Assembly: GCA_002633005.1 (NCBI GenBank) | Contig: NMRA01000302.1 | Location: forward strand, 257,760-321,759 | Direction: 5' to 3' | Source of the DNA: Phoronis australis | Taxonomy: Eukaryota; Animalia; Phoronida | Length of the DNA: 64,000 nucleotides | In this document: positions 1 to 62,732 of the stretch, piece after piece | Numbering within the stretch: position 1 is the stretch's first letter | How the letters are laid out: each line of letters opens with the position of its first letter | The notes under the pieces: model-generated | The model's database searches: none | The model's input: the letters and a program-made list of their open reading frames with translations, nothing else | Told to the model about the DNA's origin: nothing | Program-made: the position numbers and the translations under genes

Positions 1-481
1 AAAAAATCTGTATTAAATTCAGTTCACTATAAAAAAATTCGGTGCCATGGCAAAGGCTATTATTTGGGCTTAGGTTTCGAATAAAAGTGTTTGCGTAAAG
101 ATCCGTTTCATGAAGTTTTTAACAAAAATGAAGCGGAAATAGTGCCTTTAATCCTGGCATCGGACTGACTAAAGAAATATTACTGGAATGAATCAGGAAT
201 TATCACAGCAATGCATCGTACTTATGTTGCCCTCGACTACGATAGACGAGCTGTCAATTCTTAGAAATCCCAGAAATCATCACTGCTTATCTGAGTAAAG
301 AACATGTTGAGACCATTTATACTCCATTATGTGGTCTAGATCGAAAGTTCTCATCTTGGACGGAACATGGGTTAATACTCGTTTTACTGAGAACAGAAGA
401 GAACACATTTTAACTTAGTTTAAAAATGATGGCGCTCGTCAGAAATCACATTTAATGCCACGAGTTTTTGCAAGAACTCAC

Positions 482-3400
482 AATAACCTCCCTTCTGAAC
501 TGGCTGGTTTCTATCTTCCTCAGTAGGTTGTCGTGTGGCTCGAGGTGGGCTTGTGTTTCCGGTGCCTACCATCACTTCACCGGATCGAACACCCGACAGG
601 GTCCTGCGCAGCACGAATCCGTGGCCTCCCTTTAAGCGTTGTTCAGCTACACATCTACTTAGAAAATATATTTATGACAAAGAAGGTGATGAAATATCGC
701 ATATCAATTCAAATTTTCTGAGTAAATTAAGAGTCATATTGACTAAAGACATCGACCTTGATGTTTTGGGATCCGTAACAGAAGGCTAAAATAGATGTGT
801 GATAAACAAAATGGTTCAATAGCGGGATAGCCGCAGTAAAAGTTACAGTTACATGAATTATTGCTTCTTTTTGAGTGAATTTTATCTCTCACAAAATCAT
901 GGTATTTGCATTAATTAAATGGTTACAGTACTAAGCTCAGAATTCTTCCCTGTGTATGTCAGCCAAAACCGATGTTCTTCCAGACTATAAATCAGTTCGC
1001 GCTCCTTTACCGCAATTTTTCAAAAAGAGATGGACTGAAAACTGCGCAAGTTCATCCATGAAAGTAAATAAACTGAGTATGTTTGATATGCATTGAAAGG
1101 ACGGTTATGGGCAAGATAACTTATTTTTTGAGATCAGCCATCAGGTTATGCGTGGTCACAGTTAGTAATAACAGCATAAAAACCCGACAGGTGTCGCAGT
1201 TTTACAGCTCTGTGAAAGCTAATAAATTAAAGAAATGTATCCTATCAAAATGCGTTTTTCTTTTTTAACCCTGGGTGTCTACTGTCGTTATTACACAAAT
1301 CGGCAACCCAATCCCAAGTCTTGAATTCGAAGAATTTCCCCTTTTATAATTTCTATTCCATGTGAGGACAAATTTAAGGTGAATTCCTTTTTATTTTGTG
1401 TTTTTGAGTTGAGTATTCTATGACATTCGCGGACGAGTAGCTGATTTCAGTTCTTACTTGATGATATCAAAAGAAGACGTACATATATGGGGTAAGAGTG
1501 ACGTAATACCTGTAGGATAATATCTCTTTAGTGTGATTGAAACGTAGTAGAAATTGAATAACACGGTTTGTTGTTATGCCCGCAATGTAACGATCGAGGG
1601 CGACCACATTAATTCAAACAAGTTTACGCTAAATATTTGAGTTTGGAAGTCTACCAAGTACCGGCAACTTCAGCGTTTTAAGTCGTCCAGTCCAAAAGTC
1701 AACTTTTGCTAAAGATCTGATATGAACACGTGAGCATTTTCTTAATTGCGCTGACAATTACAATGTCGTAAAATGCCGTTAGTTGGAGGTTTGTTAACGT
1801 CAATAAAACAAATACAATACATATACAAAAAAATAAAACAAAAACAGTACCTATAATCGTTTTCCACTTTTTGTGGTGTTTCTTTGGATATAATGACGGT
1901 CCAGCCCTGGGTGTAGATCGTCACGTTGTTAAGAGCCTTCACAATTTCTGATCGCCTGTCAATTTCATACAGTTTCACGGTATGATGTCCTGAAAAGAAA
2001 CGTTCAAGCAGTCGCCAGGTATCGACTGAAGCAGCGTCACGAAGCAATTTGACGAAAGAGTGTGAACAGGTGAAGTAAACAATGGCTAATCGACGTTTTC
2101 CTTAGACGTTTTCCTTTTAATAAGAGATATTGTCCTTTTTCCGCTAAAACGTTTTTTGAGATAATTGCTGATTGTGATAGACATGTTGAAATTATTAGCT
2201 TTGACAAAAAGTATGAAAGAATAAGGCTCGTCTCTTGGCCATTTTATTACAAATCGCAAAATTTCGCAGTTGTTCAGATGTTTGGCGTACCCACTTGATA
2301 TTTGCCCATTTGGCAGTTTGCTCCCATTGGTACCTGGTATTAAATTTGCTATTTTGCTCTACCCAGTTGGTAGGCAATCGACCAATATCCATGGTGCCTT
2401 CTATCAAATAATTATTTTTAGAGCCGTGACTCTGTACTTCCCAATACAACCTAAAATATACATCATAGTTGTGTTGTTTTTTGTCCCCAATAAATACGCT
2501 TAAATACCCTAAGGAACATGTATTGCAAGTGGTGTTTACTTCGACCAGCAGAGAGGGTGGCTGCCACATTTTTCAGCTCTCTTGCGCGCTGAGGCTGATC
2601 TCAGAAAAATCTTTTTTCTCCTTTTAAGGCGATTTGACATGTTTTTAACCACTTAAAAGATGCTATAAGTTATTGCATCAATCAGACTGCTCTATATTAT
2701 GATAGTTTTACTGTAAGAATAGATTTTTTCATTATCAAACCGGTAAATCCAAGGAAACATCGCCGGAACTGCTTCCGGTGGATTTGACCTCGCTGGTAGC
2801 AATTACATGTATTTATGAGACTGCGTTCACCCATGTCTCATCCTTTCAACCTATTAGAAAGCAACTACTTCCGGTCTTGTTGGGGCACTGCCAGATGAAA
2901 GAGAGGGAGCGAAGGAGGGATGGTGGGAAGGGGGGAGGCCCAGTGAGAGGAAGTGGAAGTGCGAGAGAGAGGGGGGGGTTATATACCAAGTGTGTCCATT
3001 TTTCCTACCTGGACCGGAGTCAGCCTGGCCTGGCATAAAATGAACTTTACACACAATCGTCAACTTTTTGCAGTCCTCCCTTGTGTCCCAGCCTTTCGAC
3101 ACTAACTGTGAAATACGGGGTGCCACTGAAACAGGTCCTTGAATGAATACGTTGTCTACTGGATTTAATATCTCTATACCATGTGTTCCATTAGCAAAAT
3201 CATAGCGGGATTTTCTCTAGATAAGCACATGGGCATGTTTCAGACTATTAAATTTTCAGGCGTGTTTTCGGAATAGGGGGGCGTCTAAATGGAAAGTCAT
3301 TGAAAGCTTTGCTGACATTTTTTTCTTAAAACTGTGCTTAAATTGTTATGTTAATAAGTGCATGGTTCGCTAACACCTTGTTCGTTTTCATAAATCTGAA

Positions 3401-6400
3401 TGCTCCATAAAACTGAATTTGCGAGAAAGATATGCCCCTGAGTGGGATTTTTGAGAAAATTTTCCGAATAAAGGCTCCACTATCTGGACACTTGGCACCA
3501 TCAGTTGTAACACCATATGATTTTCCGAAAAAACGGACATGGGCATTTCATTGGATGGGGTTATCCCGGTAACAATAATAAAAAGAAAAAAGAACAACTG
3601 TATTTTACGTTTGTACGCGCAGAGTAAGAAAACTAGAAACAACAATACTCTGCGCTTGCACACGTTTGCATAGGTTTGGATGAGAATACCACGTGACCAT
3701 AGTCCCCACATGATTAGACAAGGAAAACGTGATGGACGGCAGCAGGATGCAACGCACTCGGTGGCAAAACTATCTCGTAGTGAGAAAACTCGTCAAAATC
3801 ACCTGCTGTTATTGGGCATATACGGTGATGTCTCGTAGAATCTCACAAGATGTTGCTCTTCCAGCGATATATTACAGTAGCGTTATTGAACTTGACAGCG
3901 ATTTTCTGTGGTTACGAAAACAGACATGATCGGGAACAGGCTCAACAGGTTTACGCGCCTGTGGCCTGTTTCACTTCAGTGTACGGCAGTCGCAAGATTT
4001 TTGGCGTAATAGCGAATTTCGAACTTTGTAATGTACGATGCAGCTGAGATATAACTAAAGCGTATTTTAGTTTGACCGTACACTGTATTTGATCCGGTGA
4101 CACGAAGACGTGTAAAGGAAGACAAAAGAACGTCAAATTATTTTTAATTACGATTCGGTTGCACTGAAATCTGGCAACAAATTTTTTCCGTGAATAATGT
4201 GATTACTCTGGTAGTCCTCTTCGGTCGGTCTTCCATGTTGTTTTATCGAAAAAGAGCTCTCTGTTCTATTTATACATGGTCATCTAACTACTTTTCAAAT
4301 AAACATGTGAAAATAGACTCATAGTTTCAAACCACTGTATACACAAACTGAAGGCAGCAAAGAATTTAAATGTCGCTATCTTTACAGACCTTTTCTAAAT
4401 GAAAACTGTTTAAACCAACTTTCAAAATCACTGTTTACTGAACAACCCGATGTTCACGTACGTAGGCATTTGTGTATGTCCTTGTCAAATTTGTCCCACT
4501 TGTTGTTTCCAAGACAAGTGGCTTTGATGGCCTGTTTGTTCATAACATCGCCGTTTATTGCGAAGCCAGTTGCGCAATTGTGCGTTACCTTGATACCCTT
4601 GGCGACCTTTCCCGAGCGAGACGCCTTGTAACCAAAGTAACTATCGATTTCACACATGTCCAAACTCGAACTGACTTCTGCGAGAAAAATGAGACTGTCA
4701 TATCAAATAAAAAAACATAACATTTTCAAAATATTTCATCAGAGTGTCAGAATTCAGACCAAATTTCCACTTTACTCTGTAACTAAAAAGGTCTAAAACT
4801 TGATAACATCTTTATATTTGCTTCATCGACATGTCATTTGTTCAATGCACTGTTTGAAATACTTTAAAAGAAAAAATATTGAAAAGGGAACCTGCGCCCG
4901 AGGTTTAATCTCCAAACTTTAAATTGAACTCGAAATTATGTTTACTGTTTTAGTCAGACTTTCACCCAAATTAAGATTCTGTTAGCCAGTGCTCGAGCAT
5001 ATTGTGGTATACACAAAATGAGTTTTTAGTTCAACTTTTAACTGAGTTTTCCAAAGAGAAATATAATTGAGAAATGATGAAAAGTGACATTATTTGGTAA
5101 AACGGGGCAAATATCTTCAGAATGAGTTCATCCCCAAATGTGTATTGAAGAAAGCGTAAATAATCTCTGGTGTGTCAGTCAAATCATAATTCATGGAGGT
5201 TTATCCTTGACCCTACTCCTTTAAGATTCAGTCTAGTTCCGGGATTGACGTTTAAAAATCAAAATTTGGAAATTTTAGGGTTGATGGCTAAGTTTAACAT
5301 GTGGGTTAATCCGGACGCTTGCAATAACTCCCAAAATAAAACATTTCAAAACTCCTTTTAGCAATAACAACATTGTATTGAAGACCAGAAACAAAACATG
5401 GTGTTCAACAGGGGGCACCTGTACAGTTTTGTGTCAGGACGTGTGGTATGACGATAGTTCACTCACCAGCAGGCCGAGTTTTCCCGAAAACTGAAGACAG
5501 CGCACTCCAGTAGGGATTGGTGTTCATGTTTATTTTACCACGGACCGCCATCAAGTATTCGGTGTCAGGGACGAGATTTGCAATAACATGCGATATTGTC
5601 TTAGAGCCCGTGACGGAAGTATCGGTGAAATTAACTAGCTGCAATGTGAGAGTTCATAGTCAGATTTTGACAGTCTTCGTAAAAATATTTCAACTTCAGA
5701 AGAACTAACTTGTCCATTTTCAATCTTAAAAGTAGCAAACAGAGGAAATGAATGAGTGTTAAAATTTATGATGAAAAAGTTTGCATCTTTGTTGGTAATA
5801 AGTTTGCTGTGGCCAAGAACAGGTCTCATCCATCTTAACATTGATATTAAGTTCTGTCATTATAAATTTCTCTCGTTTGTTAGAGCCTTTAAAAAAGCAT
5901 AATCCATTTACCACACTCTTTGGTCAACAAATAGAAATGGTTACATTTTTTTCAAAAACGACACCAAAATAATTTTTCATAACGTATTCAATTTCAGAAA
6001 AGAAACCGATCGAAAAATCACCGGTTTTTGTCCACGATAGTTAAACTCAGTGTTTTATTGCCCTGACGTCATCGATAATGCGGTAATTTTCCTGCTCCAT
6101 ACCAAAGAAGCTGAAAACCTAAAATCCTGCCTCCCGTTCAGTACCGCTATGACCTCGCTAAAAAGCAAGACTTCGCGAGATTACGTGATAAATTGCCGTG
6201 TAGTTTAAATGAGAACACGTGACTTTGACTAGGATTTAGCTAGGTCCTAGCGTAGGTCCTGGCGTCTACTGAACGCACGCCTGATATGGAATGATTACGG
6301 CAACTGCGATCTATGTACAAATCTATTGAGGAAGAGAGTTTGCACGGCCGCTTGGCCAATTAACAAGTGATGATTGAAATCCTTGAAAGCAGATAATGCC

Positions 6401-9400
6401 CTTTAACCTACATGTAACCTAGCCAACACGTGAAAGTTTAAAACAAAAACTCTTAAGCCAGCAAACCTCATTAACAATCTAGGCAAATTCATCAACGTCT
6501 GAGCGGCCGACCTCCCACGTCAAAACAGAATCCATGTTTCGACACACCTAGACAGGGTTTGCCTTGCGAGCATTTCGAAGTGCAAGTTTCTTGCGAGAAA
6601 ATCTAGATCCCGCAAGGCAATTTAAAACGACGCAAGTATAATTAATCTGTTTACTCCAAAAGTGGAGACTAAGAAAAACAAAGATGTTTTCACTGAAAAT
6701 CATGATATCTACGACCTTTTAAACTTGCGTCAATGCCTGTACTGAGGAAAGTTAAGACAGTGCAACGTTTATGTTTAGAACTGTGATCAAAAGTCATTAA
6801 AAGACCTTCGAGGAAAGGAGTGTCAGTGACAGTCAATCAAAGACCCATTTCGTGATAGTGTGACAGGGGCTTTAAATACAATCCAGACATGGTGAGCTCA
6901 GATATATTATATCCGGTTGTCTGGTAAAGCACAACATTTCGTACCTTTTCATCAGTGCGCAACTTGGTAAAGTAGATGATCTCAAACACCATTCCGCAAG
7001 ATAATTTAAAATGACGCAAGTGTTCTTTTAACAGCAGCCACTATACAGATACCACTCAAGAAGATCCAAGTCTGTCAAAAATATACCAGTCCTCAAGTAG
7101 TACCATTTTCCCAGGTCTTACATGCATAACTACTCAGTGTCCACCAAAAGTAATTCGTGTGGAGAAGAAGAAAAACAACGGAGTTGTTCCACTAAAATCG
7201 TGATACAACCTTTTAAACTTGCGTCAAATGTTGAAGAATTTACGACCCTGCAACGTTTATATCAAAAACTGTCGTCAAAAAGTCATTAAAAGACCTTCGG
7301 TGAAAGGACTGTCAGTGACTGTCAGTGTGACAGAGCTTTAAAGGAGAATGCCAACCGATTTAATTAGTTTTTTTACCGTCTTAAAGGTCTATATCCATAT
7401 CTCCTGTTATACAGTCGACCTCACCTTGCCGAGAGGTGTCACGTTGACTTGTGAGGAAGGTGAGAAATGACGTAGCGACGTCAGTGGTTCGTCTGCAGAG
7501 TGAATGCCGCTATACTGCAGTACATTGTTCCCGCTTGTCCGAACTATGAAGCAGAGAAGAAAGCGGGTATGTCGTTTTTTCAACTTCCTCGAGAGGCCGA
7601 AATGCTTAGGAAGTGGCTCGCCGTAGTGAAGAATGGAAGGTTCGCTGTTAATGAGGCCGTGAAACATCTCCGTGTCTGTGGCCGGCTTTTCGTCGACAAT
7701 GATTTCTCTGCCAAATTCCGGCTTACCAAAGAACTATCCATACGTTCCGTTGCCTGTGCATGTTCACGGCGCCTCTCTTGTATTTCTTGATCATTGTATC
7801 CTGGTTCGAACTGATAGTCTGTGAAACCTAACGATCCGACCCGTGAAGTCTTCGACGATGAGTTCTTGACTAAGTCAGGATTGCTATGTAGACGTTTATT
7901 ATTCTGCGTTCTGCTTCGAAATAAATTATTCTCACCCTAACCAATGCTTATACAAAACTGAAACAAAGTCTGCCTCATTAGATACAATTTGTAATGCCTT
8001 TGCAGTATTCTTTAGTGCAAATGTTGAGAAGCCAGCAATGGCCACTGCGTTACCGGCTTTTGATGCCGGCAATAAAGGTAATTGACCCGGCACCGACGCC
8101 GTGTGAGCCCATGCTAATTCAGTGTTTGCTAACAGAAAGCTGATTTGAAACAATACTCGATTTTATATGCTATGGTCGCATGTTAGGGGAATCTTTATAC
8201 AGAAATACCAATACATTATTCAAATCATTGTTACGGAACAATCTTTGCCCTTACAGTCTGTGGGAGGGGAACCCCGACAAGTAAGTAGGTTTTCAGTTTC
8301 GTGGCTAATTCACATAAATAATTACGTGCACATTATTTCCTTGGCTGACTATTATAGCCTTTTCGTGACTGGAGGTTTAGTTTCCGGCAACTCAAGCTGG
8401 TATATGATTGTGCCAGTCTCGGCGGCCGCGACGGGCCTGATCGGGTTCCGAGCCACTGGCCGGGATAACGAGTCAGTCCCGCCGCTACAGGCCTGATCGG
8501 GGTCCGAACCACTGGCCGGGATAAGTGTTCTGTGTGTGTTTAGAACTAAAAAATCACAAGTCTAAACAACACAGATCTAAGTTCTCCTGTCTGTATTTCA
8601 CGGAAGAATACTTCGAATTTATCTCCGAACAAACCCCAAGCTTCTGCTACGGACCTTGGTAAATTGGCCTGCCGAACTTTGTAGGCTACGGTGTGTCCAA
8701 ATACCAATAAATCCGTAACAGCGGAATAAAACAACACGTTTTTATAAGAACTAGATGTGTTTTAAGGGTTTTACATCGAAGTTTGATGGTTTATTGGTGT
8801 TAAACGATGAATTCAAGCGATAAGCTGACACCAGTAACCCATGTTGTGAACTGCTGAACAGACTGCTCGTGAAACCAATGACGTCATTGGATAATTTCAA
8901 CACCTCCGTCTGCCGTGAGGTGTCAGGTAACGCAACCGAACGAGTAGAACTATAGATCTACTCGATCTAAATTGATGCAAAATAGGTTGTTTTGGGGTGC
9001 CATTCTCCTTTAAATACAATCGAGACATGATCAAATCCGGTTGTAAAGTAAAACACAACTTTTCGTACCTCAACATCAGCGCTCAACTTGCTACGGTAGG
9101 AGACCTCAAACACCATTCCGTTGGCTACTTTTAAAGTTACGTCCATGCCATGCGGGGGCCTCCACGTCACGTTCAACTTTGTGCTTGGGTCACCGATAGC
9201 GGGACTTGCACTTAGTTTTTGAACTCGGTCGGGCTTGACTGGAATAAAATTGTACATCAGGACTTTGCTAAGCAGTGCTGTCAGTGGTAAAATAAGTGGT
9301 AAGTTGGCGCTCAAAGACCACCGTATTACCTTGAGCACTGAACGTAACTTACAATATACGTTGCATAGGCGCTACGTTCAAAGGCCAAAAACTGGTTGGC

Positions 9401-12400
9401 TGCGCCTACATGCGCCTACGCCCCACTGCAGCACTGCTGTTACGAAAAGTAAAGGCAAGACTTTATGCAATTTCTCCGATGTATACAACACACCAAACAG
9501 TGTCAACGTCAGCGAAAGGATAAAGCATCGAATGCTGGGAAGAAACTAAAGAGCTGCTGAGAAAAGTGGTCGGAGGGAGGTATCGGCACAGATGCACGTT
9601 GGAAAGTGAATAATTCTTCCCTAAGCAGAAATGTAAAGTTTGATTACGACTCAAGTTTTAAGTAACGTCATCGGCAAGACTGCAATTAACCAAGAATTTA
9701 GAATTTCGTAATTATACGGCTAAACTCAGTAAAGAAAATATTTTCTGGCGGAAATAAAGACTTAAGAATGTATTTGTTGATATCAGTCTTATAACCATCT
9801 TTTTTGAAAGATTTGGTGTTTTAAAAACAAGTTCAGACCACTTTATGTACTCATGCACTGTACCATATACTGGGCTTCTGGTTATTGGAAATGGGGTGCT
9901 CCAACCTTATTCAAAAAATTGTCCATTTTTACGATGTTACATTTGTGTCTAGCAAATTTTAAATATCTTATCCCCATTCTCGGGGAACTTCAAGTACAAA
10001 ATATATACCGCGTAGCGAGAAAAAAAAATTATCAGAACCCCCTTAGAACCGCGCATCCGCGTAGATATTTGTTTACTACTTATCCAAGGTCAAAGGTTAA
10101 AGGGCTTTCAAATAAATCGAATCTTCCGCCAGGTACAGAACAGCTTCGTATACCCTTAGTCCTTTCATTCACAAAGTCTCCATGAGAACCAACGAGGTGT
10201 TTTTATGATAGAATGGTGCCGGGGAAAACGAAGTCAAAACGTAGTTTTGATCCTAAGGGAGTTGTCCGTCTACGTGCATACTACCGTTGGCGTTGAAAAC
10301 GAATGCTACGAGTCGCCTCAGGCCTCTGTGGTCATGAACACAGAAAGTTGTGGAAAGAGATAAATCCTTACCCCAATTCCTTAATTCAATTAATAAGTTG
10401 ACATTTCGATGATCTCATGCTAACGACATACTTTAACCACCGATTCGATTTTTGTAATCCATTTCTTACCTGGTTTCGTATTAGTCTCCCAGCACGTGAC
10501 CTGTGCAGGCTATGAACTGTGACCTACTTAGAAAGTAGGGCGTGAACAACAGTAAAAGTTGGCTGGGAACAATACGTCTAACTGAGGTTCTAATGATACT
10601 TAAGTTGGTTTCGCATTGCAAAATCAGTTGACATTGCGGGTGAACGTTGAAATAGTTAACATAGTTAAAGATTGTATGTGTTATGTGTACCGAAAACAAG
10701 TTTTCACCGAGTAATTAACCGAAGACTTTGAGATTTTTACTTGTCCCAGTTTAATCGTTTTTTCTCGGCTTCGGAAAATCGACTTTATTTGAACTTAGTT
10801 CTCAAAAACGGCTGAATGGATTTCGCTGAAACTTTTCAAACTTAATATTTAGCCATCAGTCTCAAAAATGCTATTAGGATTTTTGATATAAAGGACTAGT
10901 TTTTGCGTAATGTGACAAAGACGAATACGGCTTCAATTTTTTTACAAAAAACCTTACCTTTTGCGAGTTGATATAAACCTAACGAACAGACTAATCGAAA
11001 ATTCCTAACAGATTTTTGAGTTAACTGGTGAAGTTTTCATTTAAAAAAGGTTTCATTAAAATCGACCGAGGGGTTATTTTGCTATGAATGTACCTTTCTT
11101 AAAAATGAAATTTTGACTTAAAAAAGATTTTACGTAAAATAGTAATGGCACATGAATACAAAAAGTACATTTACATTTCCTGGTCTGCGTTCTTTCAGAA
11201 ACTACCACTTTTACTAGTTGACAAAGCTTAGTTTTTTGATATACGAATGAGAATGGAGGCCACTAAATAAGGTTGGAGATAACCCTAAACGAGTTCGTTC
11301 CAGTGAAAGGCGTACGTGCACAGTTAAGTTTGCGTCACCATAAAATTGCACAAATGTCGCAAAATTGCACTCACATTTCAACTCTGGATCTACCTAAGGG
11401 ATAAACGATAAATGGGCCTTACTTATCTCCGGGTTGGCTTTAACCTCATACATTTGGGGTCCAACCGAGTCTTGTCCTCGCGTGACCTCGACTATGAAGC
11501 AGTAGGTGCGATATTTTTGGAACAAGTGTGGATATCTATAGCTGGAGAATTTGGAGAAATATATCCTGAAGACCGTGAATTGTCCAGTGATCTCCTTCTC
11601 TGGTATGATCTCCTTAGAGTCGTCCACGAGGCCAGGCGTGTTTGTCGGACAGCTGTTACTGCAAGCAGATGCAGTGGGTGACATATCATGTTTAGTTATA
11701 CCGGTGCTTCCAGAAAGGACGGAAGTAAAAGAATCGTCGTATTTTTTGGAAAACCTCGAATGGCTTCGCCAACACACTTTCACGACATTGTTTTTTTTTT
11801 GAAAAATTAGACAGCTGCACTGGCCATTTGGTTTGTGATTCTTAAGGTCTCCAGATAGAATTTAAATGTCGTTTCAAAACAATTAATTCATTGCCAAACA
11901 CGACGCTTTGCTTTTCAGTTTCACAATTTATTTTTAGTTGTTTTTAATTTTTGTTGGAATTGTTAATAGAAAGAATGTAGGTGGTCTGATGTAATTTGCG
12001 GTGCATCAGACGTGCGCAGGTCTCATGATTGGCCCATTGCATCAATCACTTGTGCTAAAAACACAAAGGGTTTTCTTGGACGAGGTTGTAAAAAGCATTG
12101 CCTTGATTTTCTGGAGATCCTCGAATGAGTTCGCAAAGAAATTAATTCTAATACAATTTCAAAACATTGTCTTTTTGAAATATTTGACAGCTGCACTGGT
12201 CATTTGGCTTGAGATTATTAAGGTCACCTGGTAGAATTTAAAAGTCAGATCAATGTACATGTAAAATAAATGACCTGTTCATCCTACATAAAAAAGGGCG
12301 ACAGACTGGGCATGTACCCAGTTGCGTACACCCATCCTGCAGCATCCGTGGGATACCCATTAATAGGTTCAAGTACAATGTATATAATACAGAACGCTGG

Positions 12401-15400
12401 CTTCTATATTTACGAGTTCGTCTGCATTTTCATTGCCGTCAATTCCCACATGGGTTCTGACCGAGTGTATATTGACGATTATTGCAATTGCAAGCTTGTT
12501 AAGCTCATTATGCAAACATGAACAAAACGAGAATTTACCCTTGTTTTCTTTAGGGCTTTTATTGCTGCTGAGAAGTTTCAAGAAGTGTAGCTCACGTTTT
12601 AGTCTGATGAAGCATGATAATTTCTATTAGGGCAAACATTCTGACTCGTGTAATTCGTAATTTACAGAACTTTCAATAGTAATCCTTTTTTAAAATCACA
12701 TCTTATCACGTAACACCACACCATGAATTCATTAATGTTGTGCTACAAGTACTGTAATTACACCAAAAACCCGCGACCGTAAACTGCCGTTGGATGTCAA
12801 CCAAACATACCCCGGCTTGAGTCGAGTGACGCCACTTACATGGTTTTGGTGAAATTGACTTGGACTTTCAGGCCGGAGACACCAGAGATGTAAGGATAGG
12901 GTAAAACCCACTTACACTCCATGTCGTAGAAGTTCTGGGACATACAAGTTGGTTGGCTGGGTAACACAAGCGGGTCTGGAAAACATTATAAAACATTCCG
13001 TTTTAGTGAATCCGCACCACAATGATTCTCAAACGAAAGGACCTATATGGTCTAATGTTAAGCGTTTCATGCAATCTTATATCCAACCTTAAACTATTTT
13101 TTTTTGCTTTTTGTGTCCACTAATGATACGCCTCGTTCTCAAAGAAATGTTTTAAGCCCAAAAACATCGAATGATTTTATCTCATTCAATAGTCCGTCGT
13201 CCGCCAGTACATTATTTCGGCAGTGAAATGCAGATTGCTACTGATACTGCGTGACGTCACCCTAGCGAATTATTTATGTACTGCTATCAACAATGGGCGC
13301 CATCAAGCCTTCGATGTGCCGAGGACTTCGCTGGATACTCTGGGGTAAACAATGCCGGCTTTCTCGTGCACTTGCGTGCAACTGCTGTTACCGTAAGTCT
13401 TGTCAAACACCCCGAGACATCATGACGACGTTGATGATGATGACAATGACGATGACGATGATGATGATGACGTTACAGTTTCCCGGATTGAAAAGAACTG
13501 GCAGTTCGTTTGTGCGTTAGTGTTTGAGAAGGCAGTTCTAGAATTTGCATTTTACCGCAAGTCATTTTGTGCGCCGAGCAGGGTCTCAATCAAAACTGAA
13601 CTGTTACTTCGTTCCAAGCTCAGCAACCATTTCACAGTTGAATAAGGAAAAGTCGATTTTCTTAGTGGCGAGTGGTCGAAGTCACATTTCCTTTGGTAAA
13701 AAGCAGTCGTGCGTTCAGTAACGGTAGGACCTAACTAAGTCTAGTCAAAGTCACATGTTCTCACTTAAAATACACGGTAATATCTCATGCAATATCGCGA
13801 AGTCATGGTCTTTAGCGACGCCCTAGTAACTCAACACACGGCCAGGTTTATAACGTTAGCTGACATCGTAGGCTTGTACCGGTTGTCTGGGAATGACGTG
13901 ACAACACATGCCGAGCGCGTCTATTTGCAGAATTCTTTATTATTTCTGAGGATAGATTTCAGTAGCTGTCTCACAGCTAGAAAAATCTAGTCCAAATAAT
14001 CTGTTCTCCTTCATAATATGCAGCAACATTTTGCGTCTTTTTAGCGAGGTCCTAGCGTTATTGAACTCCACCTAGATGTTGTAGTGTTTTAGCCAGACCG
14101 CTCACATAGACAGTCAACCAACGCAATTTTAAGTATTTTAATTTAAGTTAATCATGCAATTTTAAAAAAGTGCATTTCTAATTATTCGGCATGAAATCCA
14201 AACTTGTCCATTTATCGTCTCAAAATTGCTCTCAAAAGGCAGTCTCTTACCAACATATGTAGGACACTAGCAAAGCTGTCACAAAGAAAGAAATGATCAC
14301 TCACCAGAAAATGTTTTTCAAAATTTGACTGTTTCAAAGCAGTGGCAACCGAATGTTGAAATAGACACTATCATTGTATGTCAAGGTCGATAAAACAACC
14401 GTTCGTCAAAGAAACTAATCACTTTCAGAAATGGTCTCAACAACTCGTTATTTTTTGTCAGATAAGGAAGTTTTCTGAGGTAGCAAAGAATTTTCAATTT
14501 AGTCGTGCTTGGGACCAGGCTCGCCACGTGAAGTAACCCGGTGCAGCAAAAGGCCAAATTGTTGAGCTTTATCTCAAGTAACTGAAAAATTGTCAGTTCT
14601 TTCCTTGCCCCTAAATCACGTCTCATCTGAAAAAGTTTACCTCCGTTTTAAAACGGGGACTGGTCTAAACCAAATGCTGCTTCTTTAGCACCAGGCGGGT
14701 TAAGCTATGACATGTTTAACCTGGACGTGCACAAGATCTGACAGTGCACCGTTCACCTTGAGAGTATTACCTTTAACGAACAATCAGCATAACAGCAGGA
14801 TAGTAAAATCTCACAAATGTAAGACAGATGTGGCGGACAATTGAAGTCTCTATTTTATTTTTAATAAAAGAAAAGTCACCAAAATGAATGCTTTGCAACT
14901 TCTGAGTTCAAGATCATACCTGTCACTAAACACCGCTTTGAGAATTTTAGACAACCACGAATCTTATAAGAAGGAAAGAGATCAATTTCCCAAATACTTT
15001 TTGACAAAAATCGGTGAGGTTTTTGTAATATAAGGTGTAACTTACAATCAACTGTCAGTTGCTGTGCAGGGTCCCAAGGTCTTGGATCGCTATGACAGTT
15101 ATAGCAACAACGAACATATTGCAGGTGTTCAGCCACGGACAGTTTGCGGAGAGTGATGTGCGCTATGGATGAGTTTTGCCAGACAGACTGTAGTGAAACC
15201 AGTGAATACAATAATTAGATAGAAAGAATGATTGAGTAAATAAAAGAGTACCTGGGAGCTACAGCAAAAATTTAAAATAGGCCTTTCTCAAGTTAAAAGG
15301 GCCTTAGTATTGTTGGTTTCACTGAAAAGGACCAATACGTACCCCCGCAGGAAGCTGTGTGTTTTTAAAAGTGATATGAAATGGCTTGTCTGACTTCGGT

Positions 15401-17975
15401 TGGCAGCTATTCATCTCGCTCACTTTGATATTGACCGCACATGTCAGCCGTAGGTCCTGTCCCACATCTATTACAGGGTCATTTGGCAACAAAGTCACTG
15501 GAATGAATAATAAATGCAAACAAATCAGATTTTTATACAAGATTCATTTCTTTACGTTGAACACCAGATCCACATGTGGGTTCAGCGGGTGCTCTTGGGC
15601 TTGAATCGTTTCCATCAAAATAAAATACCATACCGAAATACATGGCACAAAGCACTTGAAAGTATTCATTTTTCTACGCCTGAGTTTACTTACGAGACTC
15701 TTACTAAGTTAAGTTAAAAGAACCTTCATACAGATGGCTTTTAAAGCAGTGACGTCATCAGCCTTTCTCTTTTGAAGATGAATAGAGTAACATCTATCAA
15801 GGACATAAAAGCTCATAATAGCAATTACGGTGCATCACAATAAAAATACTTTAAAAAGAGAAATTCCTTCCCGCACTGAAAATTGAATTATACCATTCTT
15901 AACATACATGTATATACCAGCAAGCCTGTGCTTTTGAAGCGGGTCAAAATTAAACCATTTTATGACACGTTTCAGTGCCTAAAATTATAAAATGTCCACA
16001 TCGCCGGAGTTGTGACGGATAACTTGGAAATGGTGACGCAAATAAACAGGGCACTATATGTACTTTTATGAACAAGATATTCCATTTGTCCTCTCTACTG
16101 CATCCTATACTGGTGAGATTTCCCATGGAAACTGGCTATCTGGGCCAGACGCAAGACACTCGAGAATTTGGCAAGGTCAGTGGTGATCAGGCGAGTAGAA
16201 AACGGCAAGCGAAGAGGTGATTGGTCAACGAGGCTGGAAAGTTGAGTTACGGGATAGAATTCCCGATTCTGTTTAATGACCTAAGATATCTCGCCACATG
16301 TGTCTCGTGAGTGTCGTGCGCTTGTAGAATGCACCCCCTGGGAACTCGGCAGTGCAAACGCAACCAAATTCCCAAAAACTTACAGCCACAGCGCCTGAAA
16401 GTGGCGTCGATAGGTGTCGCTGCACAAGTCAGGAGTAGCGTTAAAGTGAACGTTTTCACAGATGACGGACGCGCGGCAGCTGCAAAGACGCATAATTACA
16501 AAAGTCATTGCAAAATGTAATTCAGTGACAAGAATTCAACAAGCAAGTAATGGGATTGAAATTTAACTATGTTGCTGTAAATAAAAATAGCCGTTCCTTA
16601 TACTACACCGGGTATTTGGAAATGTTTCACACATGGAGAATTGAATGAAGTCGATTATTTCGTCAATAAAGGGCAAACTCCAAAGCAAACCAATGTGCTC
16701 ACTGATTGGTTAAGACTGGCTCAATTTTGAATCTCTAGTTAACTCACGAACGTACACGGAGACTGTAGACACTGCTAAGCCTGCACCTGAAAGAAGCAAC
16801 CATGCGATACCTACTGTATATTGAGATTCCAATCTACCTGAAGTGCTGCGGTCTGCAGTGTTTGAAATGCAGATTTTAAAACATCTGGCTGGATTACGGC
16901 TGTTATTTGGGCGAAATATAATTCGGCGTTTTCATAGTCTTTGTCGGAATTAGATGAAAGTAGATTGTTACCGTGTGAAACAATCTTAGAAAATGTTATG
17001 CTGTTATGGGATGATGGAAATTAAGCTAAATATTTGTTAGCATCTGGTAACTGACTAGAAGATGTAGACATTTTAGTTTTTGTAATGTACTGTACACTTG
17101 AGCATGTGGGCTGGAGCATTTTGTATAAAAAGAAATAAACAAATCCACATTTTGATTGCTTTGTTAAGGAGTGAAAGTATAATTAAGTTTTTCCTTTCCT
17201 ACGATCGATAGTACATTACATGCGTGACTCGGCACAAAATGTCCTAATAAGACGTCATGCAATTTACTTTTTGTAAGCATAAGCATTTCGGACACGATTC
17301 ACAGCGCACAGCACTGTTTTTGTGTGCAAAATAACAAGTGGAAGGGTAGCGTATCACTTAGTTCTCTAGACACTATTTCAAAGTCATGTATTCACCGAGA
17401 GATTTTGGGTAGATTGACATGTGCTTTGAGGTAGACTATTAAAACTAGACCTCGCCTTATGTAATTTCATTTATATACTATTATCAATGGGTAGCCAACT
17501 TCGTCTACTACCATAGCAAAAGAGTTGCAATCTGTGTCTAGTCACTAGCGGCGCCTCCCGAGTTATTTTTAGGGTACACTGCACGCGCTTTGATTGTATT
17601 GTACATGTACGTCTGCTGACTTTTTTTGTTCTTCTGTAAAACGTGACGTTTTCAGTGGCATTGCTTGAGCCATTGTCGACTGCTCATGTGATGTGGAACG
17701 GCTTTTTTCAATGTCTCAAAAACTTTCGTAGTGCTAAGCAATAAAATACGTATTAGAATTTACCGCCCTAATACACTGTACAATTATCGGGTACTGTGAT
17801 CTAGGTAAGAAGTGAATGGCGCCTCCGCATGGAATTCATAGGCGAAATATGGAATCTGTTGTTTTGAATATGGTCATGCATGACTTCCTCTCTGGGGATT
17901 TCCAACAGAGTAGATACATATAACGAGTTTCTAACCGTTTGCTGCTTTTCAATACCTACCTTTGATGTAGCACAT
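482..17975 (-). CDS. Gene A (3' end off-window): class I cytokine receptor-like surface protein, SP + Ig + CHR (2x FN3) + sushi/CCP + Ig + Pro/Thr stalk; 589 aa in window
   Basis: Hand-spliced coding exons, all GT-AG with an open frame: 17975-17960 (MCYIK), 16479-16384 (signal peptide), 15497-15343 and 15187-15046 (Ig, LLPNDPVIDVGQDLRLTC...VRCCYNC), 12975-12840 (TCMSQNFYDMECKW, the C-x9-C-x-W CHR hallmark; absent from ORF track), 11658-11423, 9238-9069 (KPDRVQKL...LNVTWRPP), 5638-5467 (LVPDTEY...PYWSALS), 4677-4462 (sushi, 4 Cys plus KWD), 3125-3009, 1989-1851, 654-482 (second Ig ending NDYRCVA, then stalk; phase-1 donor GTGAGT). Exon lengths match paralogs B and C. First micro-exon is the least certain. 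Confidence 0.85.
2280..2400 (+). mobile_element. Ngaro terminal-repeat fragment
   Basis: TTGCTCTACCCAGTTGGTAGGCAATCG is shared with about 39113-39140 and nearly with 48968-48995. Confidence 0.55.
6135..6282. mobile_element. Short MITE (Harbinger-like), family with at least 4 copies in the window
   Basis: Inverted ends CGTTCAGTA.CGCTA.GACCT / AGGTCCT.GCG..TACTGAACG; absent in B at about 21210. Related copies at about 13708-14070, 28550-28915 and 38830-38988. Confidence 0.65.
6945..6996 (-). pseudogene. Orphan 3' remnant of the FN3 exon (GMVFEIIYFTKLRTDEK plus donor) inside gene A intron 7
   Basis: Homologous to the 3' ends of exons 9238-9069 and 22131-21962. Keeps the GTACGA donor but lacks the 5' part and acceptor; lies in a duplicated intron segment. 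Confidence 0.75.
7342..9009 (+). mobile_element. Kolobok-type DNA transposon, non-autonomous, with degenerate THAP ORF (about 7504-7740)
   Basis: TTAA|AGGAGAATG...CATTCTCCT|TTAA termini. Empty site gagctTTAAatacaatc in gene B (about 21884-21900). THAP-like VPACPNY..FFQLP..WLAVVK..LRVCGRLF with a frameshifted start. Confidence 0.8.
9893..11285. mobile_element. Non-autonomous TIR element, gene A-specific insertion
   Basis: CTCCAACCTTATT (9899) is inverted as AATAAGGTTGGAG (11266-11278). Flanks are nearly contiguous in gene B at about 22860-22880. Confidence 0.65.
12400..12480 (-). mobile_element. RNase H fragment of a non-LTR retrotransposon
   Basis: HSVRTHVGIDGNENADEL matches the RNase H motif W(V/I)PxHVGIxGNExAD; segment not present in B. 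Confidence 0.5.
13421..13470. repeat. (GAT/GAC)n microsatellite; equivalent copy at 28272-28325
   Basis: Direct reading; same intron position in A and B. Confidence 0.9.
13708..14070. mobile_element. Same MITE family, inverted; shared with gene B (28550-28915), so it predates the A/B duplication
   Basis: GTGCGTTCAGTAACGGTAGGACCTA...AGGTCCTAGCGTTATTGAAC at the equivalent intron position in both genes. Confidence 0.55.
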
Positions 17976-18242
17976 TGCATTGGGTTTTCAGAATGCTCGC
18001 CGCTCTTGATATTAACATCCAATCGAAAGTACTTAAGAAACGCAGTTTTTTATTTGAGATAATTACGTGATCATAAAAACATGATTCGTCATTTGCAATT
18101 GTTACTAATAAGGGTCCGTGTCGCTAAAAGTGCATGGCTTAAGAGACAGAACATTAATTTTTTTAGGGATACCTTATAAATTCATTCTTCAACAGTATAC
18201 AATTCTAATTGTTAAAGGGTGAACAAGGAAAACAGATAAGGA

Positions 18243-18273
<31 letters not shown>

Positions 18274-18286
18274 CCTCCCTCCCTCN
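18243..18286. repeat. (CT)n/(CCCT)n microsatellite between the gene B 3' flank and the gene A upstream region
   Basis: Direct reading; includes the ambiguous base n at 18286. Confidence 0.9.
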
Positions 18287-18962
18287 TCAGTGTGACGCCA
18301 AAAGGACATTGCGTGGGTACTCACTTCCGTCCCTAACCACCAAACGCTCCTCCAACCTTAAACAGAGCAGGTTCTTACCAGCATGTCAGCAAAAAGCGTA
18401 TGCGCACAGCCTTTGCACTATAAACTACGAAAATAATTTTCTAACAACAATTTCCTTGAATACGAAAGTCAAATCTTTGATTTATCTACATGTACCTAGT
18501 TTTGTTTCATCCACATCGGTGTTAGTTTTCTGGAAAATCAAACGTGCTCCCTTCTTCACATTTGAAATCAAGGGACCGTCATGGAAAGGGGAGGGTGACA
18601 CGTGTAGGCCCAGATAACTACACTACAGTGGTATGCATCTACATTTTTCGAAGCGTGAAATTTTCGACTCGTTTACAGAATTTGCGGAGATTTGTGTGAA
18701 GAACGACATTCTCCAGAAGAAACTGTCATCAGAGATATTGACTTAAAAAATTTGTTAGATGAGTGTAGTGTCACAAGATGTCGGCTCAAGCAAATTGAAA
18801 CTGTTTATTTTCTATTTTGTGTTACACGTTCACTTGGTTCTAGACTAGAAAATTCGAGTAAACCTTCGAATTTCACGAGATGTGAATGGCCAGTTTGGTG
18901 ATCACGTGACTTGATTGGTAAGTTACATGTACTTGCACTTCGTGATTCTACTGATATGTGCA

Positions 18963-21900
18963 TCAATGGGAAAGTGTCGCTGCGGCCAAAATCAAAGTAA
19001 GCATGGGTGGTTCGGTCATCTTTGCCTTGGTCCCTGTGTTCTCTATACTTGCGTCCATTTGTTGGTTAGCGGGGTAGTGTTCCACAGTCTTTCCTTGAAA
19101 TTGCACTGAAAACAATTATTGTACGAGACATTTGTTTCGACAAAATGGTAAAACTGAATGCTGTTCATATCAATGGGAGCTAAATATCATTTGTATGAGT
19201 AATAGTGAAGCTAGTGGGTACCATGTTTCTGCAAGAAAGGCCAGTTCGTGATTTGTACAAGTTCCAGTTGGAAGACTAACCAAAGTTAAAAGCAGCCCCA
19301 GAGCAGGCACTTTTTCGGGATCGTTTGGAATGTCTGGTATTATGGAAATGTATGCAAGAAATCAATGTTTTCTCTTCTATATTGGTGACCACTAAAATAC
19401 TTTAAACTTGTCCTTTACTACCAGTAGCGTCACGATATTTCATTTACAGCAGGCAAATTGGCTGTCGACAAATCGCGATCGAAAACACGGCAAGTGATCT
19501 CAGATGAAATTTGTCGTCGTCACTAGAGAGATCGTGCGAGTGGTTTAGGAGCTCACCTGTAGTCGCAAAATTAATGTCTTATAGGTTTGCTTGTCCCAGT
19601 GAGAACACATCTGTCAGTTACCGTGATTGTGGCTATTAGTAAACTCATTAGCGAATCCATGCGAAAACGGAAATGTATCGTCATTTTCCTAATATGTACC
19701 AATATGCCAAATTTCGTGGAAATGCATAAAAATTTGAGTGTGCAGAGGCAAACGTAAAAAATAGATTTGCCACCGGGGTACAGCGATAGGCAGATGTGTC
19801 CAAAAATCGTCGTCGACTGTCTTCGTTCAACGAAATAATTGCCAAATTTAACAAAGATCCCGTAAGGGGCTTAGTAGAAACAGACACGGACTCAAAAAGG
19901 CACTAGGGGGACCGCAGTATTCGAATAAAAAATTAGTGTCGATCCTACTTTTTTTAGTTTGAACAAATCTGCCAATTTCCATGATTCTTCAGCGGTGGGT
20001 TTCGCGGAATAGATGGTAAAATGGCCGGATGGAGGACGGGGAGACTGATGAAATTCCACTGGGCGGCTAGTGGCGGACATTGCTGTTTCTAGGACGGTGA
20101 CGACAGTTAGCAAGCATGGGCTTACAAGAAATCAAGAACGTCCGCCATTGAATGAATACTCTATGCTTTTTTGCTTCCTCGACTAGACGCCCGCTAGGTA
20201 TCGCTGCCGTCCATGAAACAATAACGACTGCGACCAGTGAAATAACATGCAATCTTCCTATTGTCTATCCATCCAAAAATACATGTAAAAAGACGTTGTC
20301 ATGAAAATCCGTCAACTATTCCGAAGATACAGAGGCCAACGTGAAAACTCACCCTTGCGTTCCCTTTTATAAAATAAGATTACATGAAATCTTCAGAATT
20401 GCGCGTAGGCCTACATACGTGAAAGGGTTTTGAATATATATGTACAGCAGGGTACGCCTGGCGGACAGCCAGACAGACGGACAGACGGAGGGACAGACGG
20501 AGGGACGGGCATCACAGTTTTGTGTCAGCACGTATGGCACGACAATAGTTCACTCACCAACAGGCCGAGTTTTCCCGAAAACGGAAGACGTCTCACTCCA
20601 GTAGGGATTGGTGTTCATGTTTATTTTACCACGGACCACGATCACGTATTCGGTGTCAGGGAAGAGCTTTGCAATAACATACCATATTGTCTTAGAGCCC
20701 TTGGGCGAAGTGTCAGTGACATTAACTGTCTGCAACGTGAGAGTTTGTAGTCATATTTTTAACAATCTTCGGAAAAACACTTCAACCTCAGAAAAACCAA
20801 CTTGTCCATTTCCAGCTTAACAGTTGTAAACAGAGGAAATGAAAGAGTGTAGACATCTTTTTATGAAAGTGTTTGCATCTTCGCTGGGAATCAGTTTACG
20901 ACTAATTATATATATGGCCAAGAACAGGTGGCTTTAATCTTAAAATGGAAATTAAGTCCCGCCATTTTAAATTTCCGAGATCAGAAAACAGCCTAGAGAA
21001 ACGTTCTCTCGTTTTTTAGAGCTCAGAATGAATGATAAGGCATTTACCACATCCCTTGGTCAACAAAACAGAAATAATTACATTTTCCAAAAACAATTCC
21101 ATCATAATATTTCTTAGTGAATTCAATTTCAAACTGATCTTCCAGCATTTTAAAGCCCTGAAGTCATCGCTAATGTAGTAATTGCCCTGCTCCACATAAA
21201 AAGAGACTAAATCCTGATATCGAATGATTATGGAAACCGCGATCTACGTGCATGTACAAATCAGTTAGGGAAGACAGTGTGCACGGCCACTTGGCCAATT
21301 AACAGGTAATGATTAAAACCTTTAAAAACAGATAATGCCCTGTAACCTAGCCAACACGTGAAAGTTTAAAAAAACCTTAAGCCGCAAACCTCATTAAAAC
21401 TCTAGGTAAATTTGGTCTGGAAAGACCGCCTGCCCCAGAAAAGAACCCATGTTGTGACACAGCAAGACAGGGTTTTACCTCTCAAGCATTTTGAAATACA
21501 AGTTTCTTGCGAGAAAAACTAGATCCCGCAAGACAATTTTTAAAAAATGACGCAAGTGTTCTATTAGCAGCAGCCACTATACTGATACTACTCAAGGAGG
21601 TCCACGTGCGTAACACATCTACCTTTCTCATGTAGCCCCGTTTTCCCAGGTCTTACATGCATAACTAACCTGTGTACACCAACAGTTACTCGTAAAAAGA
21701 GACGAAGAAAACAAAGATGTTTCATTAAAAACCATGATAGTTATACAACCTTTTAAGTTTGAGCCAAATCTTCAGGAAAGTTGATGACCCGGCAACGTTT
21801 ATGTCAAGAACTGTGACTAAGAAGTCATAAAAGACCTTCGGCGAAAGGACTGTCAGTGACAGTCAATCAAAGACCTGTGACAGGAGCTTTAAATACAATC

Positions 21901-49774: not shown

Positions 49775-51140
49775 TTATTGTCGTCATACTGTAAACAATT
49801 ACCCTGACATCTTACCAGCAGTTTCTGTTTTTTCATCGTCACTCAGGTTCCATTTTCTTTAAAAAATGAAGTAATTTTTCTTCATTACACAGTGAAGCAG
49901 ACGACGGAAACGGAGTCGTAGTGCGCAGCGCCACTGTCGGTCGCCTGGGATATCGCGGGAGAGCTTATACTTAGCCATAGTTCCGTTACGAATGCGCCGT
50001 GTTCCGAATTTGACAATTGAAATTGGATCTGAGCCCCTCCCCCCCCACCAAACACTAAAACTGCACACATTTAAATCTTGTTTCATCCGTATAATTTTAA
50101 TTACCGGGGTTAATTAATAAACTCAACATTTCCCTACGCTCTTGCTGTTTTATTTTTTGCGGCAGCCAAGGGGGGGCCAGGCCCCCTGCCCCCCCCCCCC
50201 CCCTAAATCCGGCTATGCGTACAAGACTCAAATTTTGAGAAAAGCACTGCGTCTACGCCATGTATGCCCCCCCCCCCCTCTAGGGACGGGTAAACTAGTC
50301 CTTCTTCTGTTTGTTTCTCCTGTAAACAGTAGTATCATACATGTAAAATGAAAATTTTTAAATTGTTAGACAAGACAGGAGAACACTCCTTATCTTATTC
50401 TCAAGTTGCTAGACGAAGAACACGTTGTTAGTGTGACGCCAAAAGAACATTCCGTGGAATTCGCTTCCTTCCCCAACCACCAAACGCTCCCTAAACTCTA
50501 GAACAGAGCAGCTTCTCATCAAGATGGCAGCAAAACAGCGCATGCGCACAGTCTTCGTACTAAAAACTCTACCAAAATAATTTATTAACAACAATTTCGT
50601 TGAATACGAAAGTCATATCTTTGAAGAATTCAGACTGTGTACAGTACATTGTATATCTACCAAATTAGTTTAGTTTTGTATCATTCATGTCGGTGTTTGT
50701 TTTCTGGGAAATCAAATGTGCTCGTTTCTTTACACTTGAAATCAAGGAATCCCCATCGAAGAGAGAGGGAGCACATGGGCCCAGATAACTACAGGTAGTC
50801 TACTGCTCCATTTTTAGGGCACCTGAAATTTTCGCCTCGTTTGCAGCATTTATGGAATTCTGTGTGAAGGACGACATGCAGGAAAAACTTTCACAAGAAA
50901 TATTGACTTCAAAAGTCTTGCTCGATGAGTGTAGTAACACAAGAGGTCACTAAAGCAAATTGAAACTGTTTTATTTAGTGTTACATGGTTTTGTTACGCA
51001 CTTTTTGTTCACTTGATTATAGTCAATGACCACACAACTTTTCTTGTATTAAGATTCGACAAGCTGTGAATGGTCAGTTTGGTGGTCAACGAACGTGGTT
51101 AAGGAGGTACTTGCGCTTGGTGATTTTAAGGAAATGTGCA

Positions 51141-62190: not shown

Positions 62191-62732
62191 CTGGCCCGAA
62201 ACAACGGGTCAGGGTGTGCTTCGAGCGCTGGCCGTCTACGCCGTGTATGCAACCCTCTCCCCTCTAGGGATGTGCAAAATAGCCCCTCTTCTTCTCATTG
62301 CTTCTCCCGTAATCTATGATAAAATGGAAATGTTTAAGTACTTCGACAAGACAGGAGAACACTCCCTCTCATACCCCTGGGTTGCTAGACGAAGAGCACG
62401 TTGTTAGTGTGACGTCAAAAGAGCATTGTGTGAGTACTCGCTTCCCTTTGCAACCACCATTCGCTCCCTACACCCTTGAACGTAGCAGCTTCTTATCGGC
62501 ATGGCAGCAAAAAAGTACATGCGTATAACATTTGTACAACAAACTATCAAAAAATTTTCTAACAACAACTACGTTGAATACGAAAGTGTTCTGCCAAATC
62601 TTTCCAAAATTTAAGCTGTGTGCCATATATTGTCCTAAGTCTTGTTAGTTTTGTTTCATCCATTCCAGTATTTGGTTCCTGGAAAATCAAAATTACTCGT
62701 TGCTTTACATTTGAATTTAAGAAATCCCCATC

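Follow-up and report, generated by a model that had tools for sequence, protein, structure and literature searches.

A single gene joining an Ig domain and a cytokine-receptor-like FN3 pair to sushi and Ig domains in a tandem cluster of paralogs

A stretch of 64,000 nucleotides from contig NMRA01000302.1 (assembly GCA_002633005.1, positions 257,760 to 321,759), hereafter the window, carries at its left end a gene that we call gene A. One gene encodes here, in one transcript and in one reading frame, an Ig-like domain, a putative pair of FN3 domains resembling a cytokine-receptor homology region (CHR), one sushi module, another Ig-like domain and, finally, a stalk. The reading that we favour, with moderate confidence, is that gene A is a constitutively spliced single gene and that its predicted product is a non-signalling chain, secreted or lipid-anchored, which would bind a ligand.

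Exon structure of gene A and the joint between its halves

RNA evidence was taken from the raw reads of three RNA-seq runs of the same species (X1, X2 and X3), X1 and X2 being stranded. Reads of all three runs were mapped onto positions 1-18500 of the window at a likeness of at least 95%, and in a second mapping onto positions 4250-5700 at a likeness of at least 90%. Counts of reads over joints are given in the order X1/X2/X3 or X1/X2. Gene A lies on the minus strand, where RNA joints connect 12 exons from an ATG at 17975 to a splice donor at 482. All 11 introns are RNA-supported and run GT..AG on the strand of the gene (CT..AC on the forward strand). Coverage in X1 and X2 was single-stranded with the first mate on the plus strand, as expected for minus-strand RNA in the usual stranded libraries, and X3 had essentially no reads over gene A at a likeness of at least 95%. 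The exons, with borders taken from RNA joints, and the central intron are as follows.

17960-17975, minus strand: coding part of exon 1, MCYIK, phase 1, with the in-frame ATG at 17975-17973; joint 17960/16479, 10/14/0 reads
16384-16479, minus strand: exon 2, predicted signal peptide with the hydrophobic core VKTFTLTLLLTCAATPIDA, phase 1-1, from RNA joints, translation and hydropathy; joint 16384/15497, 17/14/0 reads
15343-15497, minus strand: exon 3, first half of Ig-like domain 1 (LRLTC); joint 15343/15187, 21/26/0 reads
15046-15187, minus strand: exon 4, second half of Ig-like domain 1 (YVRCC), end phase 1; joint 15046/12975, 23/15/0 reads
12840-12975, minus strand: exon 5, start of the first FN3 domain (D1) with C-x9-C-x-W (CMSQNFYDMECKW), phase 1 to 2; joint 12840/11658, 28/13/0 reads
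11423-11658, minus strand: exon 6, remainder of D1 with two more Cys 50 residues apart, phase 2 to 1; joint 11423/9238, 33/12/0 reads
9069-9238, minus strand: exon 7, first half of the second FN3 domain (D2), KPDRVQKL...KLNVTWRPP, phase 1 to 0; joint 9069/5638, 25/12/0 reads
5467-5638, minus strand: exon 8, second half of D2, YLMAVRGK...YWSALS, phase 0 to 1; joint 5467/4677, 27/11/0 reads, and a further 8/13/0 with one base changed at 5469 (likeness of at least 95%)
4678-5466, minus strand: intron 8, between the two halves, RNA depth 0-4
4462-4677, minus strand: exon 9, one sushi/CCP domain with four Cys and a Trp, phase 1-1; joint 4462/3125, 177/157/0 reads
3009-3125, minus strand: exon 10, start of Ig-like domain 2 (LTIVC); joint 3009/1989, 31/35/0 reads
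1851-1989, minus strand: exon 11, middle of Ig-like domain 2; joint 1851/654, 243/198/1 reads
482-654, minus strand: exon 12, end of Ig-like domain 2 (DYRCVAEQ) and a stalk rich in Pro, Thr and charged residues; donor at 481, phase 1

Joined, these exons form a single open frame of 589 codons, stop-free from the ATG at 17975 to donor 482, with intron phases 1,1,0,1,2,1,0,1,1,1,2,1. The encoded modules follow one another in the order signal peptide, Ig, FN3 D1, FN3 D2, sushi, Ig and Pro/Thr/charged stalk. An earlier reading of the sequence only had placed the WSALS exon (5638-5467) before a phase 1-1 sushi exon (4677-4462), three exons making up an Ig domain (LTIVC...NDYRCVA) and a stalk after it, and all of these in one chain; the RNA joints bear out every border named there, put the three exons of the second Ig domain and stalk at 3125-3009, 1989-1851 and 654-482 and bear out the common transcript, and the 589 open codons bear out the common frame. 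Hydropathy revealed no hydrophobic or transmembrane segment past the signal peptide in the 589 residues. Reads run beyond 482 into further sequence (loose ends in 56/53 reads), the first 30 bases of which have no match in the window at up to three mismatches. Thus, a further exon of gene A lies to the left of position 1. Read in frame, its first ten codons are S-N-P-T-D-M-R-L-D-G.

The joint between the two halves, 5467/4677, was read exactly as in the reference by 27 (X1) and 11 (X2) reads at a likeness of at least 95% and by 28/11 at a likeness of at least 90%, a depth like that of neighbouring joints in the Ig-CHR half (25/12 and 33/12). At a likeness of at least 95% the sushi-Ig half (joints 4462/3125 with 177/157 and 1851/654 with 243/198 reads) had about five times the depth of the CHR exons, and non-reference bases were carried by 80-90% of its reads. 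Such a step in depth, together with the existence of paralogs that hold each half alone (genes B and C, below), speaks for a division into an Ig-CHR gene that would end after 5638-5467 and a sushi-Ig gene of its own, with the joint between them a rare product of read-through noise. At a likeness of at least 90%, however, the joint was found in 316/291 reads with one changed base at 5469, and the depth of exon 8 climbed to the level of the sushi exon (about 570 versus 690, X1). Reference-type reads had a similar share in both exons, with 38 of 550 (X1) and 13 of 461 (X2) at position 5500 in exon 8 and 50 of 497 and 17 of 508 at position 4517 in the sushi exon. The same share in both exons and the joint rise at the lower likeness point to a second copy as the source of the extra depth.

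This second copy lies outside the window. Judged from the reads, its divergence from gene A is about 10% in exon 8 and about 4% in exon 9, the sushi exon. It is spliced over the same CHR-sushi joint, and in X1 and X2 its expression exceeds that of gene A by a factor of about 10-30. With the read differences applied, its exon 8 and sushi exon remain open; 17 of 129 residues are changed, all Cys and Trp are kept and WSEMS stands where gene A has WSALS. The copy is either an allele or a paralog of gene A.

RNA depth over intron 8 was 0-4, compared with 270-690 in the flanking exons, and no alternative first exon was found in intron 8 among the RNA reads. An excess depth that stems from a copy with the same joint, and an intron 8 that is nearly empty, contradict the division into separate genes. 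The reference-exact count at 5467/4677, equal to that of the neighbouring joints, and a sushi exon that begins in phase 1 with neither a start codon nor a signal peptide of its own, argue in the same direction. Transcripts ending after 5638-5467, with the sushi exons in a gene apart, had been raised already beside the sequence-only reading, and this arrangement fails on the depth of the intron and on the lack of an alternative first exon in it. The CHR-sushi joint is constitutive and present in at least two gene copies.

Two short reading frames were noticed along gene A. A signal-peptide-like open reading frame (ORF) in intron 8 (MLLLLKGVLKCFILGVIAS, approximately 5370-5275) was rejected as a first exon, having no phase-1 donor and almost no RNA over the intron. 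An out-of-frame ATG at 17978-17980 lies five bases 5' of the gene A start codon, an arrangement conserved in gene B; it opens a short frame with a stop in exon 2 and could be that of a regulatory upstream ORF.

Identity of the sushi, Ig-like and FN3 domains

Queries to Pfam, to PDB and for structure were contiguous translations of single exons, and hence half-domains in several cases, rather than spliced domains or the spliced protein. The sushi identity of exon 9 is well supported by its sequence: it encodes a domain of the approximately 60-residue type with four Cys and a Trp (C8, C34, C54, C70 and W60, all conserved between genes A and C) in a phase 1-1 exon, and it is similar to CCP modules. 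In the PDB search all 12 matches were complement CCP proteins (complement receptor 2, CR2, and factor H), the best being a CCP of CR2 with an E-value of 3.5e-5. Atlas assigned the exon a score of 0.96 with Sushi in 21 of 30 matches, and the Pfam Sushi model matched with an E-value of 0.012 and 16.4 bits, below the cut-off of 20.7 bits. A HMMER profile of the two sushi exons of the window, those of gene A and gene C, matched 11 proteins with an E-value of at most 0.001 among 1.84 billion representatives, the best at 4.5e-18. According to Pfam, seven of these are Sushi-repeat proteins, two are CBM_14 arrays and two are other repetitive proteins; an fn3 or cytokine-receptor family was present in none of the 11. 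Searches for longer protein relatives returned none from the sushi exon (12 candidates, none scored) or from exon 6 (10 candidates). AlphaFold2 models of the sushi exon were of low confidence, with a predicted local distance difference test (pLDDT) of 38.4 from two sequences and 48.9 from nine, and Foldseek with the latter model gave no match at an E-value of at most 0.001.

Exon 3, with the first half of Ig-like domain 1, gave only weak leads, to the Pfam family LIF-R_Ig-like (E-value 0.098) and to an antibody light chain (E-value 0.13). In Ig-like domain 2, C472 (LTIVC) and C533 (ENDYRCVA) are 61 residues apart and are kept in gene C, the pattern sought being two Cys 55-75 residues apart with D-x-x-x-Y-x-C; its three exon pieces, queried singly, matched no Pfam family.

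The FN3 pair resembles a CHR in several respects. The first Cys pair of D1 is canonical (CMSQNFYDMECKW), and WSALS is placed in D2 as expected for WSxWS, 3' of YLMAVRGK. Co-occurrence of C-x9-10-C-x-W and WS..S at the right spacing was reached in 1 of 20,000 protein shuffles, the motifs having been picked after the sequence was seen. Strand patterns of D2 are recognizable in LNVTWRPP and in YLMAVRGK...YWSALS. For exon 8, Pfam fn3 was hit by this half-domain with an E-value of 0.052 and 14.2 bits against a cut-off of 25, Atlas returned fn3 in 24 of 30 matches (score 0.91), and the PDB match was fibronectin (E-value 0.055). Exons 5, 6 and 7 as single-exon queries gave no Pfam or PDB family match. 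According to the RNA joints, the phases over the four exons of the pair are 1-2-1-0-1, which is the canonical pattern of class I receptors over four exons. In the available part of one study, splice structure is described as largely conserved among class I receptors (PMC1963337). Motifs, D2 strand patterns and exon phases suggest that the FN3 pair is CHR-like, a call that is weaker than that of the sushi domain.

Paralogs of gene A and their proposed modular family

Self-tblastn and the ORF list revealed one paralogous copy in the window for each putative gene A exon. Copies of the Ig1, D1 and D2 exons are located at 33.9-20.5 kb and belong to gene B (56-85% amino-acid identity per piece), and copies of the sushi, Ig2 and stalk exons are located at 57.7-52.2 kb and belong to gene C (39-57% amino-acid identity). 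A third gene, D, is represented by its end.

18963-46233, minus strand: gene B, 423 amino acids, 79% identical at the amino-acid level to the first eight exons of gene A; signal peptide, Ig, CHR and GPI-like tail
18963-19105, minus strand: last exon of gene B, GPI-signal-like tail NTGTKAKMTEPPMLTLILAAATLSH followed by a stop, joined to exon 8 of gene B (20729-20558)
51141-60045, minus strand: gene C, in silico model of 283 amino acids with signal peptide, sushi, Ig, stalk and GPI-like tail
60045-60024, 58793-58740, 57687-57487, 55284-55168, 54556-54418, 52415-52243 and 51286-51141, minus strand: exons of gene C, in silico
approximately 63417-63254, minus strand: last exon of gene D, within 62406-63579, a third copy of the glycosylphosphatidylinositol (GPI)-type last exon and its 3' flank

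At the DNA level, A (5423-18204) and B (20514-46444) are duplicates of each other, and the duplication takes in the introns. Their homology breaks off at 5423/20514, inside intron 8 and 44 bp beyond the WSALS donor; past these first 44 bp, intron 8 of gene A has no match in the window. The joint from exon 8 of gene B to 19105 was seen in loose ends at 5470 (188/161 reads), of which the consensus matches exactly at 27 of 27 bases. The last exon of gene B encodes QQMDASIENTGTKAKMTEPPMLTLILAAATLSH and then a stop, a hydrophobic end without cytoplasmic residues.

In the model of gene C, exon 1 (MFADYIK) is homologous to exon 1 of A and B (MCYIK), exon 2 is short and hydrophobic, and the last exon (51286-51141) is homologous to that of B, encoding QQMDASTENAGSKAKMTRPAIVALIFVAAIISH and a stop. 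Reads with a C-like sushi sequence were abundant (583/399 loose ends, 29 of 30 bases as in C). The exon that follows in these reads differs from gene C of the window at 5 of 30 bases, which shows that a further C-like copy or allele is being expressed.

The window contains three copies of the last exon and its flanks, at 18289-19279, 50430-51455 and 62406-63579; they are 73-78% identical over lengths of 610-1054 bp. The rest of gene D would lie beyond the right edge, and the cluster thus runs past both ends of the window. Genes B, C and D all end in N[TA]G[TS]KAKMT.P, 13-15 hydrophobic residues and a stop, an end that appears GPI-like when judged by eye rather than by a predictor. The last donor and the intron start of gene A are homologous to those of gene C, as had been stated from the sequence. 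By analogy with the three paralogs a GPI end is plausible for gene A as well.

Synonymous divergence (dS) is 0.24 between A and B and 0.68 between A and C, and the ratio of nonsynonymous to synonymous divergence (dN/dS) is 0.47 and 0.55, respectively. From these values the genes of the family appear constrained yet fast-evolving. We infer a modular family in which one kind of exon 1 at the 5' end and one GPI-type exon at the 3' end enclose a single half (B, C) or both (A). Phase-1 introns at every module border would allow halves to be joined or deleted, with a breakpoint 44 bp inside intron 8. Gene A would have arisen by fusion of a B-type with a C-type gene, or else B and C would descend from an A-type gene by deletion.

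Introns of the cluster carry further sequences. Intron 2 of gene B holds an intact ORF of 249 amino acids that starts with a THAP zinc finger (34918-35667, minus strand); its only database match is 93% identical, unnamed, and carries Pfam PF05485. Intron 3 of gene B contains frameshifted pieces of a reverse-transcriptase/RNase H-like ORF (30327-31126, minus strand), by eye a relic of a long terminal repeat (LTR) retrotransposon. Within intron 7 of gene A, the segment 6100-8950 is repeat- or transposon-like and is transcribed on both strands in X1, X2 and X3, and thus even in the run in which gene A itself is silent; loose ends are numerous in this segment, and some of its joints are rearranged (8469/8548 and 8469/8423). 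The same intron contains a THAP-like ORF at 7476-7790 (plus strand). Intron 4 of gene A includes a CAT/GAT-type triplet repeat (13397-13520) with His- or Asp-rich frames. A (GA)n/(GGGA)n microsatellite at 18235-18330, approximately 250 bp 5' of exon 1 of gene A, includes the only N of the window (18286). GC content of the window is about 40%, and its character is eukaryotic. An Rfam search gave 0 matches.

Comparison with known receptors and interpretation

CNTFR-alpha, IL-6R-alpha and IL-11R-alpha are non-signalling chains of Ig, CHR and stalk with a GPI or transmembrane end. Gene A resembles them in an N-terminal Ig-like domain that precedes a putative FN3 pair with C-x9-C-x-W and a WSxWS-like motif, and no transmembrane segment is present in the 589 residues seen; gene B has exactly the layout of CNTFR-alpha, with Ig, a CHR-like region, a short stalk and a GPI-signal-like tail. 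Unlike this group, gene A carries a sushi and a second Ig domain between CHR and stalk, reads WSALS (WSETS in B), has a non-canonical spacing of the second D1 disulfide and displayed no sequence similarity to the group in exon-level searches. With IL-15R-alpha and IL-2R-alpha, gene A shares the phase 1-1 sushi exon and a downstream Pro/Thr-rich stalk, and the in silico model of gene C resembles a small sushi-first surface protein. Here, however, the sushi domain precedes an Ig domain and in gene A is itself preceded by Ig and CHR, and the best sequence matches of the sushi exon are CCPs of complement receptor 2 and factor H rather than IL-15R-alpha. Multi-CCP surface proteins of the complement-control and Ig-plus-sushi types are a third point of comparison, with Sushi-repeat proteins making up 7 of the 11 profile matches (E-value of at most 0.001); they contain arrays of 5-26 CCPs, whereas gene A has one CCP between the CHR-like pair and an Ig domain.

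By analogy with CNTFR-alpha and IL-6R-alpha on the one hand and IL-15R-alpha on the other, the chain encoded by gene A would capture or present a ligand and would need a separate signalling partner. One may further speculate, with the sequence-only reading, that it binds two ligands. Several observations weigh against the favoured reading of gene A. The further Cys of D1, at residues 185 and 235, are 50 residues apart; in known class I receptors the second D1 pair is spaced by about 10-16 residues. The second Trp of WSxWS is replaced in WSALS (A), WSETS (B) and WSEMS (the diverged copy), although the motif deviates in some accepted class I receptors too. None of 32 exon pieces scored above the Pfam cut-off, five phmmer searches of PDB (exons 3 and 5-8) returned no cytokine receptor, and no exon-level search tied the FN3 pair to a known one. 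The first ten codons of the next gene A exon show no resemblance to the GPI-type exons with which B, C and D end. As to gene C, its RNA consists of the C-like sushi reads, and its 5' exons were modelled without RNA. The sequence-only reading had named the region a CHR and had predicted a GPI exon left of position 1: motifs and exon phases agree with the former, for which the exon-level searches hit no cytokine receptor, and for the latter a further exon exists, as the loose ends at 482 attest, but its first ten codons do not look like a GPI-type exon of the paralogs.

A more far-reaching proposal, which we put forward tentatively and hold to be doubtful, is that gene A encodes one natural chain with both private cytokine-binding modules, Ig-CHR and sushi, within a tandem family that keeps each half as a GPI-anchored gene. 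Gene A would then be a snapshot of the assembly or disassembly of alpha chains by phase-1 exon shuffling, in a lineage without relatives in the databases searched.

A rather unlikely alternative to the favoured reading is that the one-chain architecture is real and its product is no cytokine receptor but a fast-evolving, lineage-specific surface molecule of Ig, FN3 and CCP domains, serving recognition or adhesion or resembling a complement regulator, with motifs that are merely CHR-like. GPI-anchored Ig-FN3 proteins are common adhesion molecules. The exon-level searches with no significant Pfam or PDB similarity to any cytokine receptor, and best sushi matches in complement CCP modules rather than in IL-15R-alpha or IL-2R-alpha, are consistent with this view, and several diverged, expressed copies with a dN/dS of about 0.5 would fit an expanded family of the immune type. 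It accounts less readily for both CHR hallmark motifs at the expected places and spacing, even if the shuffling result concerns motifs chosen post hoc, and for a D2 strand pattern and phases that match those of class I receptors.

It is improbable that gene A encodes a signalling receptor whose exon or exons left of the window specify a transmembrane helix and a Box1 tail. The C-terminus does lie outside the window, and the start of the next exon differs from the GPI-type exons of the paralogs; yet all three family members that end in the window (B, C and D) share the GPI-signal-like last exon, and the last donor and intron start of gene A find their homolog in gene C. Least credible of all, to the point of being negligible, is the division into two genes discussed with the 5467/4677 joint. 

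The combination of Ig, CHR-like, sushi and Ig domains is new relative to the databases and literature searched, having turned up in none of them. A chain of the type Ig-CHR-sushi-Ig was not known to the sequence-only reading, and no counter-example was met there; likewise, no naturally occurring chain that combines a CHR with sushi is described in the parts of the literature that were available or appears among the database matches. The available text of two studies treats the sushi chains IL-2R-alpha and IL-15R-alpha as an exception, a class apart from the Ig/Fn3 receptors (PMC1963337, PMC7378365). In the accessible part of a further study the first CNTFR is placed in cyclostomes, and sushi domains are not mentioned in that part (PMC13203501).

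The locus expresses a chain that unites module types which textbooks keep as two cytokine-binding classes. If the FN3 pair is a true CHR, both module types can work in one polypeptide, and gene A would offer a natural system in which to ask whether the two modules act together on a single ligand or bind two; it would also document the shuffling of exons for receptor halves with a mapped breakpoint. If the organism is an invertebrate, the CNTFR-alpha-like gene B with its Ig, CHR and GPI-type end would put alpha-type receptors before the first CNTFR in cyclostomes, as dated in the available part of that study (PMC13203501).

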